Positions 3,422 through 13,126 of a DNA stretch of 13,126 bases are shown in pieces (positions within the stretch are counted from its first letter, which is position 1; each line of letters begins with the position of its first letter). The stretch is from Candidatus Iainarchaeum sp. (GTDB lineage: Archaea > Iainarchaeota > Iainarchaeia > Iainarchaeales > GCA-2688035). The stretch is from assembly GCA_028713935.1 (NCBI GenBank), contig JAQTNI010000038.1, positions 1-13,126 of the forward strand, in the 5' to 3' direction. Under the pieces are notes generated by a model. The model saw only the letters and a program-made list of their open reading frames with translations, was not told the origin of the DNA and did not search any database. Position numbers and translations under genes: made by a program.

Positions 3422-3757
3422 TTATCTTCCAGCAATTTTCAGGGCTTCGGAATGGGTTTTTCCCATGCTGCGCTCATAAAGGTAAATCCATCTTTTTTCT
3501 TTTGGCAAATTCTGGAAAACCCATTGCCCAATCCTGTCTCCAATTTTATAAGACCAGCCTGCTTCTAACAAGCCTCCGCTTCTTTCACTGCCAATGGCTC
3601 CGCCTTTTTTCTTTGGATTGGTTCTTGCTTTTCTGTCAAATTCTTCAGCAGTTGGAGGCCTTATGTGAGTGTCAGGCTTTAATCCGTTTTCAAGTGCATA
3701 AAGCCTCTGCCCCGATAAGAAAACCAGCAAAGCAGATAAGGCGCAGGTAAATCGCAA
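3422..3757 (-). CDS. Small secreted/membrane-anchored hypothetical protein (111 aa from TTG; start uncertain)
   Basis: Hydrophobic N-terminus (RFTCALSALLVFLSG) followed by a charged, Gly/Lys-rich body. The track start is TTG at 3757. An ATG at 3773 in another frame also encodes a signal-peptide-like 27-mer (see findings). Confidence 0.5.
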   Translation of the reverse strand: MRFTCALSALLVFLSGQRLYALENGLKPDTHIRPPTAEEFDRKARTNPKKKGGAIGSERSGGLLEAGWSYKIGDRIGQWVFQNLPKEKRWIYLYERSMGKTHSEALKIAGR

Positions 3758-7873: not shown

Positions 7874-9271
7874 CTAAACTGCAGGTGCGCGATAAACCTG
7901 GACAAATGCGCCTCGGCTTGGATTGGAAGGATCTTTAAGGGGCCAGATTTTATATTCCTCCAATTTTACAAATCCAAATTCTAAAAATTGTTTGTCAGCA
8001 AATTCCTTTGAAACTTTGAATTCAAAATCATTGCTCTTTGCAGTTTGTTCTAAAAACTTCTTTAATCCCGGAACAACCTTGTTTTTTGGCACCGAGTTGA
8101 AAAGGGCATTGTAATAGGAAATTTCTTCCAGCTTATTTTGCAAATAAATTTCAGCCAAAATCAAAAGGCCCTTGGGCTTCAGGCAGCTTTTGATTTTTTC
8201 AATATATTTTCCTTTCTTTTCAGTGGGAATATGATGGTAAGCAAAAATTGAAAACACCAAATCGCATTCTTTGTCCAAACCTGCTTCAAGAACGTCTGTT
8301 TGCTTGATTGCCAGTTCTTTTGCCTTGATTTTTGATTCTTTCGCTTTGTTGAGGAAACCGGCATTAATATCCACTAAAGTCGCTTTGCGAATTCCTCCCA
8401 CAGAATCCGCAAATTTTTTAGTGTTGCTTCCAATGCCACAGCAAAAATCCGCAAGCACAAGATTGGAATGGTTTTTTGTATGCTTTCCAGCCAATTCAAC
8501 TGACTTTGCAATTGCCTTTGCATAATCCGGCCTCAGGTTTTGGAATTTTTTATAACTTTCGGGGCTTGAATAAGCATCAACATCCGGCATAATGCCTATT
8601 GTTTCCCTGAATAATTCGGCAACTTCCTTGTTTTTGAATTTAATTTTTTGGACAATTTTTTTTGCCTTTTCAGGCAGGCGGTTGAACATGAATCTTATTT
8701 TTTGTTTTGTATTATCGGCGCCGTTTCTTTTGAGGTAAAAAGGAACATTGTATTCAAAATAAGCAATGCTGTCAGCCGCCATAAGAAGGCCTGATTCTTT
8801 ATCCCCGCCAACTTCGTGATTTTCAACAAGGCGCTTCACTTTCTCAATTTCTTTTTTTCCATAGCCCTGTTTATCCAGGATTTTGCAAATAAATTTTGCA
8901 GACCTTGCGGCATGCTCTTTTTTGAACTCATTAATCCTGGAATAATCCTTCAAATCCTTTTCAGTAATCCCAGTAAATGCGCGGTCAATATCATGGGCAA
9001 GAGCTGCTATTTGCAGCAATTCGCCCGCATTCGGATTAAGCTTAAGCAGCCATTTCAAAACAAGTCGTGCATGAACAAGCTCTTCAGCAAGCGGGGAATT
9101 TGGCAGAATTTTTTCAATTTCCTTTTTAACCAAATCAAATTTTTTCATATGGGAAAAAAGAAGCGCAGTTTTTTTAAATGCCTGCGAAGAGCCTACCGGC
9201 AAATTCGTAACAGCATCCCACAAACCCAACTCAAAACACCTTTTCAAAAGAATTATTAACTCCAAAAACAC
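7874..9271 (-). CDS. Fusion protein: N-terminal HD-domain phosphohydrolase-like module + C-terminal class I SAM-dependent methyltransferase
   Basis: 465 aa from GTG 9271. An ATG at 9148 (M42) is an alternative and probably better start. HD pattern: H67...H93-D94 (AALAHDIDRA; HD codons at 8990..8995), then ENHEVGGD and AADSIAYFE. MTase (about 7874..8590): motif I VLADFCCGIGSNT, acidic LVDIN, DLVFSIFAYHHI, LKPKGLLILAE. Confidence 0.7.
   Translation of the reverse strand: MFLELIILLKRCFELGLWDAVTNLPVGSSQAFKKTALLFSHMKKFDLVKKEIEKILPNSPLAEELVHARLVLKWLLKLNPNAGELLQIAALAHDIDRAFTGITEKDLKDYSRINEFKKEHAARSAKFICKILDKQGYGKKEIEKVKRLVENHEVGGDKESGLLMAADSIAYFEYNVPFYLKRNGADNTKQKIRFMFNRLPEKAKKIVQKIKFKNKEVAELFRETIGIMPDVDAYSSPESYKKFQNLRPDYAKAIAKSVELAGKHTKNHSNLVLADFCCGIGSNTKKFADSVGGIRKATLVDINAGFLNKAKESKIKAKELAIKQTDVLEAGLDKECDLVFSIFAYHHIPTEKKGKYIEKIKSCLKPKGLLILAEIYLQNKLEEISYYNALFNSVPKNKVVPGLKKFLEQTAKSNDFEFKVSKEFADKQFLEFGFVKLEEYKIWPLKDPSNPSRGAFVQVYRAPAV
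9169..9179 (-). promoter_or_regulatory. TATA-like box supporting ATG 9148 as a leaderless start of the HD-MTase gene
   Basis: On the minus strand, tttaaaaaaa lies about 21-31 nt upstream of ATG 9148. Confidence 0.25.
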
Positions 9272-9296: not shown

Positions 9297-9665
9297 ATGC
9301 CAAAACCAAGAAAAAGACTTGCCTCCCTTCAGTATTTGGGGCCTGAAAGAAGAAAAGAACAAGTTGGGCACCAAATTATGAGAAATGTTTTTATTCTTCA
9401 ACCACATGATTTTCCCAGAATAAATTTTGCAAAGCGACCCGGCACGTATATTATAACACTTAAAAACGGCAAAATGAGAGTCCTTGAAGTATACAAAAAG
9501 GGAAATGCTCGCATTAGTGAACCAGCTGACAATTTGCAGAAACCCAAAATAAAAATTTCTGTTGAAAAGTTTTTTTCCGACCCAGACGAAACAGCCCAAA
9601 TTTTAGACCTCGCCTATCGCACTAAAAGAATCCCAACCAGACTGTCTCGCCCATCTGAAAACTAA
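9297..9665 (+). CDS. Hypothetical basic protein (122 aa)
   Basis: ATG preceded by GGTGG (9288..9292) and a ttttata at 9274..9280. Its composition is protein-like (MPKPRKRLASLQYLGPERRK...GTYIITLKNGKMRVLEVYKKG...), unlike the antisense ORF 9276..9599. I recognise no family. Confidence 0.4.
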   Translation: MPKPRKRLASLQYLGPERRKEQVGHQIMRNVFILQPHDFPRINFAKRPGTYIITLKNGKMRVLEVYKKGNARISEPADNLQKPKIKISVEKFFSDPDETAQILDLAYRTKRIPTRLSRPSEN

Positions 9666-9700
9666 TTTTTTCCTCTGCAACCCCCATCACAAATTTTTTT
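9666..9700 (+). terminator. Oligo-T tracts after the 122-aa ORF (archaeal-type termination signal)
   Basis: A T6 run (9666..9671) immediately follows the TAA stop, and a T7 run sits at 9694..9700. Confidence 0.3.
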
Positions 9701-9812
9701 GCAATAAAAAAATGAAGTAGTAAGCGCCAAAGAAGCCTGCGACTTGTTCTGTAGTGCCTAAAGCCCACGATAAAACTATTTTTTGCCTGTGGAGCGCCAA
9801 TTCTTTTCAAAT

Positions 9813-9964
9813 CTTATCGCCTCCACTTTGGAATTTTTTTCTTACGACTTGTGCGTTGTTCGGCTTAAACCTTTGCCTTCGCTTTGCTCAGGTTAAAGGA
9901 TTTAATGCCTCCAACGCACTGCCAGTCTCCAGAAAAAAATTCTTTAATTTTTGGAGGCGATAAG
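9813..9964 (+). promoter_or_regulatory. ~152-nt imperfect long hairpin (candidate structured 5' leader / ncRNA) whose basal stem sequesters the GGAGG RBS of the downstream micro-ORF
   Basis: Nested complementary blocks checked base by base: 9813-9825/9952-9964 (13 bp), 9831-9842/9931-9942 (12 bp), 9846-9849/9924-9927 (4 bp), 9851-9858/9912-9919 (8 bp), 9862-9864/9907-9909, 9865-9869/9901-9905 and 9870-9874/9895-9899. The apical loop is 9875-9894. GGAGG at 9953..9957 pairs with cctcc at 9820..9824, and the ATG is at 9966. Confidence 0.55.
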
Positions 9965-9965
9965 C

Positions 9966-10109
9966 ATGATTTCAGAAAAACTTTTTGATTTCCCTCTGCC
10001 AAACAGGGAAGAAATAAGATTTGCAATAAAAACCGCAAAAACAAATCCAGATGACCTTGATTCAAGGCAAGCGTGGATTCTCAAAGAATTTACAAAAGGT
10101 GTTTTTTAA
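9966..10109 (+). CDS. Micro-ORF A (47 aa), hypothetical
   Basis: Below the ORF-track length cut-off. My translation is MISEKLFDFPLPNREEIRFAIKTAKTNPDDLDSRQAWILKEFTKGVF*. A perfect GGAGG lies 8 nt upstream of the ATG (9953..9957). Its stop overlaps the next ATG (taATG). Confidence 0.4.
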   Translation: MISEKLFDFPLPNREEIRFAIKTAKTNPDDLDSRQAWILKEFTKGVF

Positions 10110-10231
10110 TGAACTGGGGAATAGAGGAAAGGCGCGGTTACGGAAACTGCTTAATTGGAAAGAGACCGCATTATATACTTGCAATGAAACTTGACACAAT
10201 TGCTATTGAATTATGGGGTTGGTCTTTGTGA
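10109..10231 (+). CDS. Micro-ORF B (40 aa), hypothetical
   Basis: My translation is MNWGIEERRGYGNCLIGKRPHYILAMKLDTIAIELWGWSL*. AAGGTG at 10096..10101 lies 7 nt upstream of the ATG. Its TGA (10229..10231) overlaps an in-frame GTG (10228) of the 388-aa ORF. Confidence 0.35.
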   Translation: MNWGIEERRGYGNCLIGKRPHYILAMKLDTIAIELWGWSL

Positions 10232-11379
10232 ATAGTCTGTGTTTCAACGGCGGCTTAATTGCTAAGCACAAAGGAAGTATAGCATTAACATTGTATTCAA
10301 CCCCTTTTGCCAGATTTCTTTTAGAAAAAGGCATAAATAAGATTAACTTGAAATTTTGTAATGGGAAATTTATAGTTGGGCTTGGAGAGGATAGAAACGT
10401 TACTGTTCAAAGACAGAGTCACAATCACCCGTTATGCATTTTTTCTGTGACAAAACTGATCCCTTCTGAGTTGAAGAAAAACTTATTTTTTTCTAATAAA
10501 CAATTGAAAGTGGATGTAATTGTTGAAGACATTGTTTCTGGCGAAGATTTGAGGAAGTATAATCACAGTCTTACTTCTATTTTGCCAGATCCAAGCATAA
10601 AATCCATTCCAGAAAACGAAAAAGTGGATGTCGGTTGTCTTATTTCTTGTTCTAGGACAAAAAACAGTTTTGGGTACACTTTTAAGGTTCGCCACAAGAT
10701 ACTTGAAGAGATTGCGCTCAAGCACAAAAAAGTAATCTTAGGAAGAAACACCAATGGAAATTTTATTATTAGAAAAAACGATCAAGGAAAGGAGTTTCAT
10801 TTGTATAAATATGCAAGCGGCACTCCAGTGGCTTATATGCAAATATCGTCTCAATTTATAACTGATTCGGAAAAAAAATTATTTAAGAGCGGGAAGCGCT
10901 GCATCTCCTATAGGGCATTTCTTTCTGAAAAAGATTTTAATTTGGATATTTCCCGATTTTTCACTTACCGGGAAGAGCGCGAACTGGCTTATGCATTGCT
11001 AAAAAAAGGTGCCCCTATTAAAATACCGCGAATGAGATTGCGAGAAGCAGACATTATTTTGAGGGAGAACAATGCCCAAATTGAAGTAACAAATGTTCTG
11101 CCGAGAGAAGGCGAAAACAAAAACAACCCGCATGGAGAAGGAATGCACATTAATGGAAGGCTTTGCGAGGGTTTTCTCAGGGCAGTAAAGAAAGAAGTTC
11201 CAATATATTTTGTTGTTTTCAACAAAAAATGGCTTTCATTAAATTGGGTTAGGCAGCTTGTTGAACAAGTAAAGCCAAATGTTGTAGCAATTGGCACTGA
11301 CTTTGAAAAAGGCTGGGAAGACGAGGTTTCTGATAAAATAATAAAAACTCAAAAGAGTGCTCTTAATGATCGAATTTGA
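10213..11379 (+). CDS. Uncharacterised 388-aa protein: internally duplicated N-terminal region + C-terminal Hjc/PD-(D/E)xK-like motif
   Basis: Long ORF with normal composition. The alternative start GTG 10228 gives a GTGA overlap with micro-ORF B. Repeat units cover about aa 8-100 and 138-232 (GGLIAKHKGSIALTL / GCLISCSRTKNSFGYTF; NGKFIV / NGNFII; IPSELKKNLF / ITDSEKKLF). The C-terminus reads YREERELAYALLKKGAPIKIP...EADIILRENNAQIEVTN (10960..11097). Its stop overlaps the helicase start by 14 nt. Confidence 0.7.
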   Translation: MGLVFVNSLCFNGGLIAKHKGSIALTLYSTPFARFLLEKGINKINLKFCNGKFIVGLGEDRNVTVQRQSHNHPLCIFSVTKLIPSELKKNLFFSNKQLKVDVIVEDIVSGEDLRKYNHSLTSILPDPSIKSIPENEKVDVGCLISCSRTKNSFGYTFKVRHKILEEIALKHKKVILGRNTNGNFIIRKNDQGKEFHLYKYASGTPVAYMQISSQFITDSEKKLFKSGKRCISYRAFLSEKDFNLDISRFFTYREERELAYALLKKGAPIKIPRMRLREADIILRENNAQIEVTNVLPREGENKNNPHGEGMHINGRLCEGFLRAVKKEVPIYFVVFNKKWLSLNWVRQLVEQVKPNVVAIGTDFEKGWEDEVSDKIIKTQKSALNDRI

Positions 11380-13126
11380 AACAAAAAAAGCAACTGACGA
11401 AGAAATATTCCGCCAGCTTCACCCGCTCTTGGCAGACTGGTTTAGGAGTACATTTGGCTCTTTTACTGAGCCGCAAAAATATGCAATTCTAAATATACAC
11501 AACCATCAGAATATTTTGGTTACTGCCCCGACAGGCACCGGAAAAACTCTTTCCGCATTTACCTCGATTCTTAATGAACTGATTGCTCTCGCAGAAAATA
11601 ACCAATTAGAAGACAAAGTGTACTGTATCTACTGTTCACCCCTTCGCGCCTTATCCAATGATCTCGAAAAAAATCTGAAAGAGCCTTTGGATGCAATAAA
11701 AAAGAAAGCTTTGCAAAAAGGAAAAGAGCTGAATATCAGAGTAGCTGTTAGAACAGGGGACACAACAACTTCTGAAAGGGCAAAAATGTTGAGAAAGCCT
11801 CCACACATCTTAATTTTGACGCCAGAAACAATGGCAATAATTCTCAATAGCCCCAAATTTATTGAACACCTGAAAGAAGTGCAATGGGTAATAATTGATG
11901 AAATCCACAGCATTGCAGGCAGCAAGCGCGGAGTCCATTTGTCTCTTTCCCTTGAAAGAATGCAGATTCTTAATCCTGGTTTTTGCAGGGTTGGCCTGAG
12001 CGCTACAATTGCACCTCTTGAAGAAGTAGCAAAATTTCTTGTTGGAATGAAAAATGAAAAAGAGCCAAGAGACTGTAAAATTGTTGATGTGCAGTTCCTG
12101 AAAAAACTTGATTTGAAAGTATTAAGCCCATTGCCAGACCTGATTAACACTTCACAGGAAGAAGCCCATTCAAAGCTTTATGCGCTGCTTCACGAGCTGA
12201 TACAAGCGCACAAAACAACACTGATTTTTACAAATACAAGGTCTGCAACAGAAAGAGTAGTGCATAACCTCAAGGATTTATATGCAGAGCAATACAGCCA
12301 GGCAAATCTTGAAACACACCACAGTTCTGTTTCGAGAGAACAGCGCCTGAATGTAGAGGAAAGGCTGAAACAGGGCAAATTGAAGTGCGTTGTAAGCAGC
12401 ACTTCCCTGGAATTGGGAATAGACATTGGATTTATTGATTTGGTTGTTTTACTGGGAAGCCCAAAGAGCGTTGCAAGGGCACTGCAAAGGTGCTTTCCTT
12501 ATGATGCGCAGGTGCTAACATCCACAGGGCAATATTTTTCTATTGGCAAAATTGTAGAAAAGAGACTGCCTGTCGAAGTAATTTCTTTTGATTCTAAACT
12601 CGGTTTTGTAAAAAACAAGATAAAAGAGTATCACAAAAATGTTGCAGTGGAATTATTTAGTATCCAATTAAGATGCGGAGAGAAATTAACTTGCACTCCA
12701 AATCACCCTCTCTTAACTGATAATGGCTGGAAAATTGCATCAAAACTAAAAAATGAAGATAAAGTGGCTGAAATAAACACAGAAATTAATTTTGACTCAA
12801 AAAATCCTTTTATTTTTGAGTTGCTGCCACAAAAGCAGGTTTATGTTAAGAATGATGGCGTCTTTTTTAGAAAAGTTTTGGATAAATTTTTGGACGAAAA
12901 AAACATTAGTTTACACTATTTTTCAAAAATAAATTCGCTTAATTATAAGACGCTTATAAATTATCGCAGGAAAATAGGCAGGGGTAAAAATATTCGTCTT
13001 GACTATTTTTTGGCGATTTGCAGGATAACTGGCGCGAGCCAAAGCTTGTTTTTGCCTTTATTGCGCAACTTAAAAACACAGTGTGGTGATTTAACAAACC
13101 TGCCATTAAGGCTAACAAAAGAACTG
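11366..13126 (+). CDS. lhr: Lhr-type (DEAD/DExH, superfamily 2) ATP-dependent helicase, N-terminal part, interrupted by an intein; continues past the right edge
   Basis: Absent from the ORF track because it is edge-truncated. I translated it by hand and it is open for 587 codons. It starts with the Lhr-like N-terminus LHPLLADWFRSTFGSFTEPQKYAI. Motif I is TAPTGTGKT (11525..11548), followed by YCSPLRALSND. Motif II is DEIH (11897..11908) and motif III is SAT. Further motifs are LIFTNTRSATE, HHSSVSREQR and SSTSLELGIDIG. GSPKSVARALQR is followed by the Cys of an intein instead of xGRxGH. Confidence 0.9.
   Translation, partial: MIEFETKKATDEEIFRQLHPLLADWFRSTFGSFTEPQKYAILNIHNHQNILVTAPTGTGKTLSAFTSILNELIALAENNQLEDKVYCIYCSPLRALSNDLEKNLKEPLDAIKKKALQKGKELNIRVAVRTGDTTTSERAKMLRKPPHILILTPETMAIILNSPKFIEHLKEVQWVIIDEIHSIAGSKRGVHLSLSLERMQILNPGFCRVGLSATIAPLEEVAKFLVGMKNEKEPRDCKIVDVQFLKKLDLKVLSPLPDLINTSQEEAHSKLYALLHELIQAHKTTLIFTNTRSATERVVHNLKDLYAEQYSQANLETHHSSVSREQRLNVEERLKQGKLKCVVSSTSLELGIDIGFIDLVVLLGSPKSVARALQRCFPYDAQVLTSTGQYFSIGKIVEKRLPVEVISFDSKLGFVKNKIKEYHKNVAVELFSIQLRCGEKLTCTPNHPLLTDNGWKIASKLKNEDKVAEINTEINFDSKNPFIFELLPQKQVYVKNDGVFFRKVLDKFLDEKNISLHYFSKINSLNYKTLINYRRKIGRGKNIRLDYFLAICRITGASQSLFLPLLRNLKTQCGDLTNLPLRLTKEL
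12491..13126 (+). mobile_element. Intein (N-terminal Hint lobe plus an inserted HTH-like region), partial, inserted in helicase motif VI
   Basis: Cys1 is at 12491..12493, directly after ALQR. Block A is CFPYDAQVLTSTGQYFSIGKIVE. Block B is GEKLTCTPNHPLLTDNGWKIASKLKNEDKV, with the T-x-x-H at 12695..12706. No helicase motif VI (GRxGH) appears before the window ends. Confidence 0.85.

Follow-up and report, generated by a model that had tools for sequence, protein, structure and literature searches.

What do the genes next to an archaeal Lhr helicase tell us about the work of the helicase? What archaeal Lhr does in the cell is poorly understood, and gene neighbourhood is among the few clues. Lhr genes commonly adjoin a nuclease gene: Lhr-Core sits with a metallophosphoesterase (MPE), and full-length bacterial Lhr with RNase T (PMC7437997). 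We analysed a contig of 13,126 bp from Candidatus Iainarchaeum (DPANN archaea), hereafter the window, which ends inside an Lhr gene. Directly upstream of this gene lies an open reading frame (ORF) of 388 amino acids (aa), the partner, which is itself preceded by two micro-ORFs, A and B; every junction in the series overlaps. An earlier interpretation made from the DNA letters alone (the sequence-only reading) saw here a chain of four translationally coupled genes, and the question is how much of that chain is a conserved unit. We find that the partner and Lhr form a two-gene operon conserved in DPANN archaea, that this operon is a real feature, and that neither micro-ORF belongs to the conserved module. 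Taken together, we read the locus with moderate confidence as a conserved partner-Lhr operon with a nuclease or nuclease-like module, the micro-ORFs lying outside it.

The evidence that carries this account is comparative. A search of 5.8 billion proteins for partner homologues returned only 12 proteins, the window's own included, the others being 46-59% identical to it; over all loci the homologues share 45-59% identity with the window protein. Seven loci from this search, three from a scan of species-representative genomes, and the window itself provide 11 distinct loci. The partner lies directly upstream of an aLhr2-type Lhr gene in 11/11 of them, and the overlap at the junction amounts to 0, 4 (seven loci), 11 (two), 14, or 29 nucleotides (nt); the seven 4-nt junctions are of the ATGA/GTGA type. 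The genomes are labelled Iainarchaeum, 'Woesearchaeota', and 'Nanoarchaeota', with marine metagenomes in addition, and they represent at least two DPANN groups. Lhr proteins of the other loci are 56-76% identical to the window's Lhr, and the identities of partner and Lhr to their window counterparts co-vary across loci (Spearman 0.71, p = 0.02). The other neighbours vary from locus to locus: enolase, PRPP synthase, PGK, RNase HII, ribonucleotide reductase, dUTPase, ABCE1, and thymidylate kinase. The partner/helicase junction exceeds chance. Adjacency of the partner's homologues to Lhr, which the sequence-only reading had named as a test of its proposal, is found at every locus compared.

The helicase, on the profiles that it and its orthologues match, is an archaeal Lhr, probably of the aLhr2 type. 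It matches DEAD (3e-32) and Helicase_C (2e-16), and the NCBIfam model PRK13767 gives 606.6 bits over residues 2-375; that this score stays under 849, the cutoff for the whole protein, is due only to the truncation of the gene and its interruption by an intein. Orthologues at seven loci (L001, L003, L005, L008, L010, L011, and L013 in our numbering) carry WHD_Lhr and DEAD_assoc, and the Lhr C-termini of L001 and L003 contain no cysteines. Hajj et al. 2021 described aLhr2 as the Lhr type in DPANN genomes and reported inteins in its RecA2 domain (PMC8301817). The window helicase resembles these proteins in three respects: it matches the same archaeal Lhr type, its intein lies in RecA2, and its orthologues lack a C-terminal cysteine motif. 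The intein begins at Cys376, directly after the ALQR of motif VI, where intein-free orthologues read ALQRIGRSGH. Its N-terminal region matches TIGR01445 over residues 376-451 (45.5 bits vs a cutoff of 24.5). The helicase frame stays open to the contig end, which falls 212 residues into the intein. The Lhr gene of L005 (7148-11149) carries an intein at the same motif VI site as the window, and that of L010 (6786-10961) at another site, about residue 343; this distribution suggests independent intein insertions in closely related helicases.

How, then, do the micro-ORFs fit? The coordinates and overlaps of the sequence-only reading were all correct when re-read on the sequence. Base 10109 is common to the TAA of A and the ATG of B; the TGA of B (10229-10231) overlaps GTG 10228 as GTGA; and the helicase ATG at 11366 lies inside the partner, whose TGA occupies 11377-11379, a 14-nt overlap. 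GGAGG stands at 9953-9957, 8 nt 5' of the ATG of A, and AAGGTG at 10096-10101, 7 nt 5' of the ATG of B. On such grounds A, B, partner, and Lhr could be four translationally coupled genes whose products form one stoichiometric complex with two small peptides. The TAATG and GTGA overlaps and the ribosome-binding-site-like elements fit this proposal, as do the NCBI calls of both micro-ORFs, their gene-like codon usage, and the retention of A in one sister genome. Codon scores of 0.18 (A) and 0.196 (B) compare with a mean of 0.198 for the real genes of the window and exceed those of all 61 out-of-frame ORFs; the corresponding probability is 0.03-0.04 under the strictest null, which keeps each ORF's own composition, and 0.002-0.005 under broader nulls.

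Conservation speaks against the four-gene complex. Neither A nor B was found in the 10 other partner-Lhr loci (tblastn, best E about 0.6), where the partner follows a short spacer of 114-225 nt that carries TATA-like and ribosome-binding-site-like elements of its own. For B, the 5.8 billion proteins contain no homologue. A has one (48 aa, MDD5147961.1, PHH08_00680) in another Iainarchaeum genome, 85% identical and similar at 45/47 positions, with mostly conservative changes; that genome gave no partner homologue in the protein search made with the partner, and viral contigs held no match to a back-translation pattern of A. ORFs of this size are also expected by chance: in first-order Markov sequences modelled on the 562-nt spacer, ORFs of at least 40 codons occur at a mean of 1.4 per strand (P(>=2) = 0.44), and several further ORFs of 37-69 aa cross the same stretch as A and B. 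NCBI called A, B, and a 122-aa ORF (9297-9665) as genes, and each is a singleton cluster in a collection of 15 billion proteins. We regard the four-gene complex as very unlikely. A is possibly a genuine, lineage-specific small gene that stands on its own. The status of B is doubtful: it probably reflects an annotation artefact, or else an ORF that is not conserved and happens to cover the likely promoter and leader of the partner, although by its gene-like codon score it may be coding. The overlapping layout that had been proposed thus divides in two: the junction of partner and helicase is conserved, and is the only conserved one of the chain, but the junctions of A and B are not. The features of the locus are collected in the table. 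We also considered B as a frameshifted N-terminal extension of the partner and rejected this, as the homologues have no such extension.

Table. Features of the partner-Lhr locus in the window (positions on the contig; residues of the partner in 388-aa numbering)
Feature	Position	Strand	Details
Micro-ORF A	9966..10109	+	47 aa; NCBI PHD95_05925; ATG 9966, TAA 10107-10109
Micro-ORF B	10109..10231	+	40 aa; NCBI PHD95_05930; TGA 10229-10231
TATA-box-like ATTATATA	10170..10177	+	51-58 nt before GTG 10228; putative promoter of the partner-Lhr operon
Ribosome-binding-site-like GGGGTTGG	10215..10222	+	6-13 nt before GTG 10228
Partner gene	10228..11379	+	383 aa from GTG 10228; 388 aa from ATG 10213; TGA 11377-11379
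Two tandem beta-rich domains (predicted)	10234..10926	+	residues 8-105 and 137-238
C-terminal restriction-endonuclease-like (PD-(D/E)xK-like) domain (predicted)	10945..11376	+	residues 245-388; Glu255, Asp280, Glu291, Arg316
Lhr (aLhr2-type) helicase, N-terminal part to motif VI	11366..12490	+	residues 1-375
Intein in helicase motif VI	12491..13126	+	cut off by contig end

The region claimed by B may instead serve the operon. Two starts are available to the partner, and the start is most likely GTG 10228 (383 aa) rather than ATG 10213: in the homologues, 5-8 residues precede a conserved NGG motif, which favours the GTG. The corresponding NCBI protein of Candidatus Iainarchaeum, 100% identical to the ORF, has the 383-aa form. 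The two elements ATTATATA and GGGGTTGG both fall inside B, in the same layout as at other loci. A TATA-like element lies 42-75 nt before the partner start in seven upstream regions, and the three added loci have comparable A+T-rich elements; at least six loci (L001, L003, L005, L008, L011, and L018) also have a GGGG or GAGG run, 6-14 nt 5' of the start. L003 and L018 have an ATG beside the G-run and then a better-supported start, as in the window. Transcription of the operon most likely starts at a promoter of its own, shortly 5' of GTG 10228, a reading to be weighed with the facts that TATA-like strings are common in DNA of 62% A+T and that the promoter pattern was read by eye. If the micro-ORFs are not counted as genes, the partner is preceded in the window by a spacer of 562 nt, vs the 114-225 nt seen elsewhere. 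Within it, 300 nt (9666-9965) are pyrimidine-rich on the + strand; no ORF there is convincing, and neither Rfam nor tRNA models match. Over the whole window, too, such scans gave nothing relevant. The public record lists the partner homologue of L010 (5647-6789) with 262 aa (P0012), and an intact 380-aa ORF from ATG 5647 aligns over its full length; its start was probably mis-called there.

What kind of protein is the partner? The statement that it cannot be placed in any family still stands: hidden Markov model libraries give no match (Pfam, NCBIfam, PADLOC, and PHROG), the same is true of PDB sequences, and PDB sequence-profile searches with the full-length protein and with each domain found nothing meaningful. 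Its predicted structure is more informative. The full-length AlphaFold2 model, built from a 12-sequence alignment, has a mean predicted local distance difference test score (pLDDT) of 87.6 and divides into two tandem beta-rich domains and a C-terminal alpha/beta domain. Compared as a whole with the PDB by Foldseek, it gives scattered weak matches: GyrA, GFP, TBP, and BstEII.

The C-terminal domain, modelled alone, reaches pLDDT 89 and a predicted template modelling score of 0.85, and the order of its elements fits an alpha-beta-beta-beta-alpha-beta core. The best PDB matches by Foldseek are BstEII, a CdiA-CT toxin, MUS81-EME1, FANCM-FAAP24, and XPF-ERCC1 (E = 0.05-0.9, template modelling (TM) score up to 0.53). 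In a library of viral structures, the best matches are labelled 'Restriction endonuclease' and 'PD-(D/E)XK nuclease domain' (E = 0.008-0.05, probability 0.90-0.98). These matches are individually weak and converge on one common fold. Asp280, Glu291, and a basic residue at 316 (Arg/Lys) are present in 22/22 relatives, and an acidic residue at 255 in 20/22 (91%), across identities of 15-56%. In the model, position 255 lies on the first helix, Asp280 where a strand begins, Glu291 on the strand after it, and 316 on the helix that comes next; these are the places where the restriction-endonuclease fold puts its catalytic residues. The model and the conserved residues indicate that the C-terminal domain is probably of nuclease type, and the earlier suggestion of a nuclease-type partner becomes plausible on the same grounds.

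The two N-terminal domains are presumed to be a nucleic-acid-binding module. Each consists, in this order, of two strands, a helix, four strands, a helix, and a last strand. They align to each other weakly but in register (E = 0.0065, probability 6%); a duplication was considered and not adopted on this weak profile support. An AbrB/SpoVT-like identity found no support at the sequence level: hhalign gave a probability of <1% against an AbrB N-domain sequence, and the likeness is confined to strand and helix order and to one relative with a weak MazE_antitoxin match (E = 0.021).

The partner has distant relatives. An exhaustive profile search gathered 61 cluster representatives (50% identity), including full-length relatives at about 15-23% identity, and no fusion of partner to helicase occurs among the 61; viral contigs yielded no partner relatives. 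Some distant relatives (P0040, P0044, P0055, and P0059) carry a winged-helix of MarR/ArsR type in place of the first beta-rich domain, and because the swap occurs there, the first-domain region may bind DNA. A distant clade of about 22% identity, traced in seven metagenome loci (among L019-L026, e.g. L020 4977-6038), lies convergent with gatD and near gatE and gatB, away from Lhr, so the coupling to Lhr is a property of the close subfamily only.

A working model can be drawn from these parts. The partner and Lhr would be produced jointly through translational coupling and would work as one complex. The two N-terminal beta-rich domains would bind DNA or RNA, and the C-terminal restriction-endonuclease-like domain would cut, or at least grip, a strand or branched structure unwound by the 3'-to-5' helicase, much as has been suggested for two Lhr partners of other organisms, the metallophosphoesterase and RNase T. 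The task of the pair would be nucleic-acid repair or processing.

Several observations weigh against this account. No structural match is found at E < 0.008, the TM-scores are only 0.4-0.58, and no sequence profile ties the partner to any nuclease family. The (D/E)xK motif lacks its usual lysine: Thr or His stands two residues after Glu291. The distant clade never adjoins Lhr, and the codon usage of A and B is gene-like. Lastly, we infer rather than observe the physical interaction, the co-transcription, and the promoter. Relocated catalytic lysines are known in the PD-(D/E)xK superfamily.

The lysine bears directly on a second explanation, in which the partner is a catalytically dead, nuclease-like adaptor for the recognition of DNA structures or for assembly, like the degenerate ERCC4 domains of FAAP24, EME1, and ERCC1. 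Cutting would then fall to another enzyme, e.g. the TIGR00024 phosphoesterase encoded nearby in close relatives. The absent lysine fits this explanation, and so do the PDB match of highest probability, which is the FANCM-FAAP24 pseudo-nuclease pair, and the phosphoesterase gene 3' of Lhr in L001 and L010. That gene is nearby in only 2/10 fetched loci, however, and the invariance of Asp280, Glu291, and basic 316 down to 15% identity would sooner be expected of an active site than of a scaffold. We consider an adaptor possible, though not probable.

A related matter is the substrate: the partner may act on RNA and not on DNA, for instance on RNA:DNA hybrids or in RNA processing with Lhr. A CdiA-CT toxin, which we take to be a tRNA nuclease, ranks among the best structural matches of the C-terminal domain, and the distant clade lies among tRNA amidotransferase genes. 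Moreover, RNA:DNA duplexes are among the substrates that Lhr enzymes unwind, and aLhr2 works on either nucleic acid (PMC5758891, PMC8301817). Yet gatD is convergent with the partner relatives and the loci look syntenic, such that the linkage may merely reflect relatedness, and the winged-helix swaps point to DNA. An RNA-specific role seems unlikely to us.

Defence against viruses would be another use for a helicase and a nuclease. A layout of helicase plus nuclease is common among defence systems, and the helicase core matches the PADLOC models DpdJ, SngC, and BrxH. These matches are confined to the helicase core; neither the partner nor either micro-ORF hits any PADLOC model, and PRK13767, the housekeeping model for archaeal Lhr, fits the helicase by far the best. 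At the loci fetched with gene tables, no recognised companion gene of Dpd, BREX, Sng, Hachiman, or Druantia was called near the pair. Flanking genes elsewhere belong to core metabolism and replication (enolase, PGK, RNase HII, ribonucleotide reductase, dUTPase, and thymidylate kinase), the divergence of the pair across loci fits joint inheritance, and no relative occurs in viral contigs. We give hardly any credence to an anti-virus helicase-nuclease system, and this part of the sequence-only reading is not supported.

We return to the preferred reading, a conserved operon of Lhr and a nuclease or nuclease-like partner, and compare it with known systems. The Lhr-Core/MPE pair (Ejaz & Shuman; PMC7437997, PMC8301817) likewise places an Lhr-Core-type helicase in an operon with a small presumed nuclease. 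Here, by contrast, the partner is upstream and overlaps the helicase start, has no metallophosphoesterase signature (neither Metallophos nor TIGR00024 matches it), has another predicted fold, and bears two extra beta-rich domains. The partner had been thought to occupy the place of the metallophosphoesterase. Hajj et al. reported a TIGR00024 phosphoesterase as an Lhr neighbour in DPANN (PMC8301817), and such an MPE-type gene still follows Lhr, 1-3 genes further on, in both of the closest Iainarchaeum relatives (L001 10530-11282 and L010 11475-12215; 165 and 174 bits, cutoff 115); it was not found in the other eight of the 10 fetched loci, and in the window the region 3' of Lhr is missing. The new partner adds to the classical metallophosphoesterase and does not replace it. 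Hajj et al. reported no conserved unknown gene upstream of Lhr; since their neighbours were annotated by TIGR profiles only (PMC8301817), the partner would have been missed. Our literature searches found no published description of it.

The second comparison is with Hef, XPF, MUS81, and FANCM, in which an SF2 helicase is combined with a structure-specific nuclease domain of restriction-endonuclease fold (ERCC4). The best full-domain structural matches of the C-terminal domain belong to this group (MUS81-EME1, FANCM-FAAP24, and XPF; TM 0.45-0.53). In the window the two activities would reside on separate polypeptides, and the helicase is of Lhr type, unlike the Hef/FANCM type. The ERCC4 signature GDxnERKx3D is absent from the partner, which instead has D...QIEVT (D280-x10-E291-V-T). 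Pfam ERCC4 was matched neither by the window protein (E threshold 1) nor by the 22 relatives (E threshold 10, among the first 25 of 42 matched families listed). It is tempting to go further and to see in the partner an unrecognised family of structure-specific nucleases that, together with aLhr2, would be a two-subunit counterpart of the Hef/XPF-type helicase-nucleases in genome-reduced DPANN archaea, using novel tandem beta-rich domains for forks, flaps, or R-loops and a catalytic lysine moved to the next helix. This is speculative, and we consider it doubtful.

Other genes of the window and of the compared loci deserve mention. The sugar-metabolism neighbours that the sequence-only reading noted are present in the window, but they are not conserved with the pair in other loci. 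Shortly 3' of Lhr, single loci encode an NgoPII restriction enzyme (L011 6856-7716), a HicA toxin (L010 11226-11441), and a Fic protein (L008 9799-10686); these genes are mobile-element- or defence-related, and none is kept between loci. Two orphan ORFs of the window have no family match: 9297-9665 (122 aa; codon score 0.066, low) and 3422-3757 on the - strand (111 aa; 0.112, intermediate). Between the first of these and a PIG-L deacetylase gene lies a gene on the - strand (7874-9271) for a 465-aa protein that joins DUF4202 and HD regions to a class I methyltransferase domain, an unusual fusion.

To our knowledge, the metallophosphoesterase and RNase T are the sole Lhr partners described so far. 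The protein described here is a second strictly coupled Lhr partner, of a different predicted fold and found in DPANN archaea, and its family, which is covered by no domain library, counts at least 61 cluster representatives. The pair is an addition to the known theme of a helicase with a nuclease partner and no new kind of system. For a helicase whose cellular role is still unclear, it offers a concrete pair of proteins for biochemistry.

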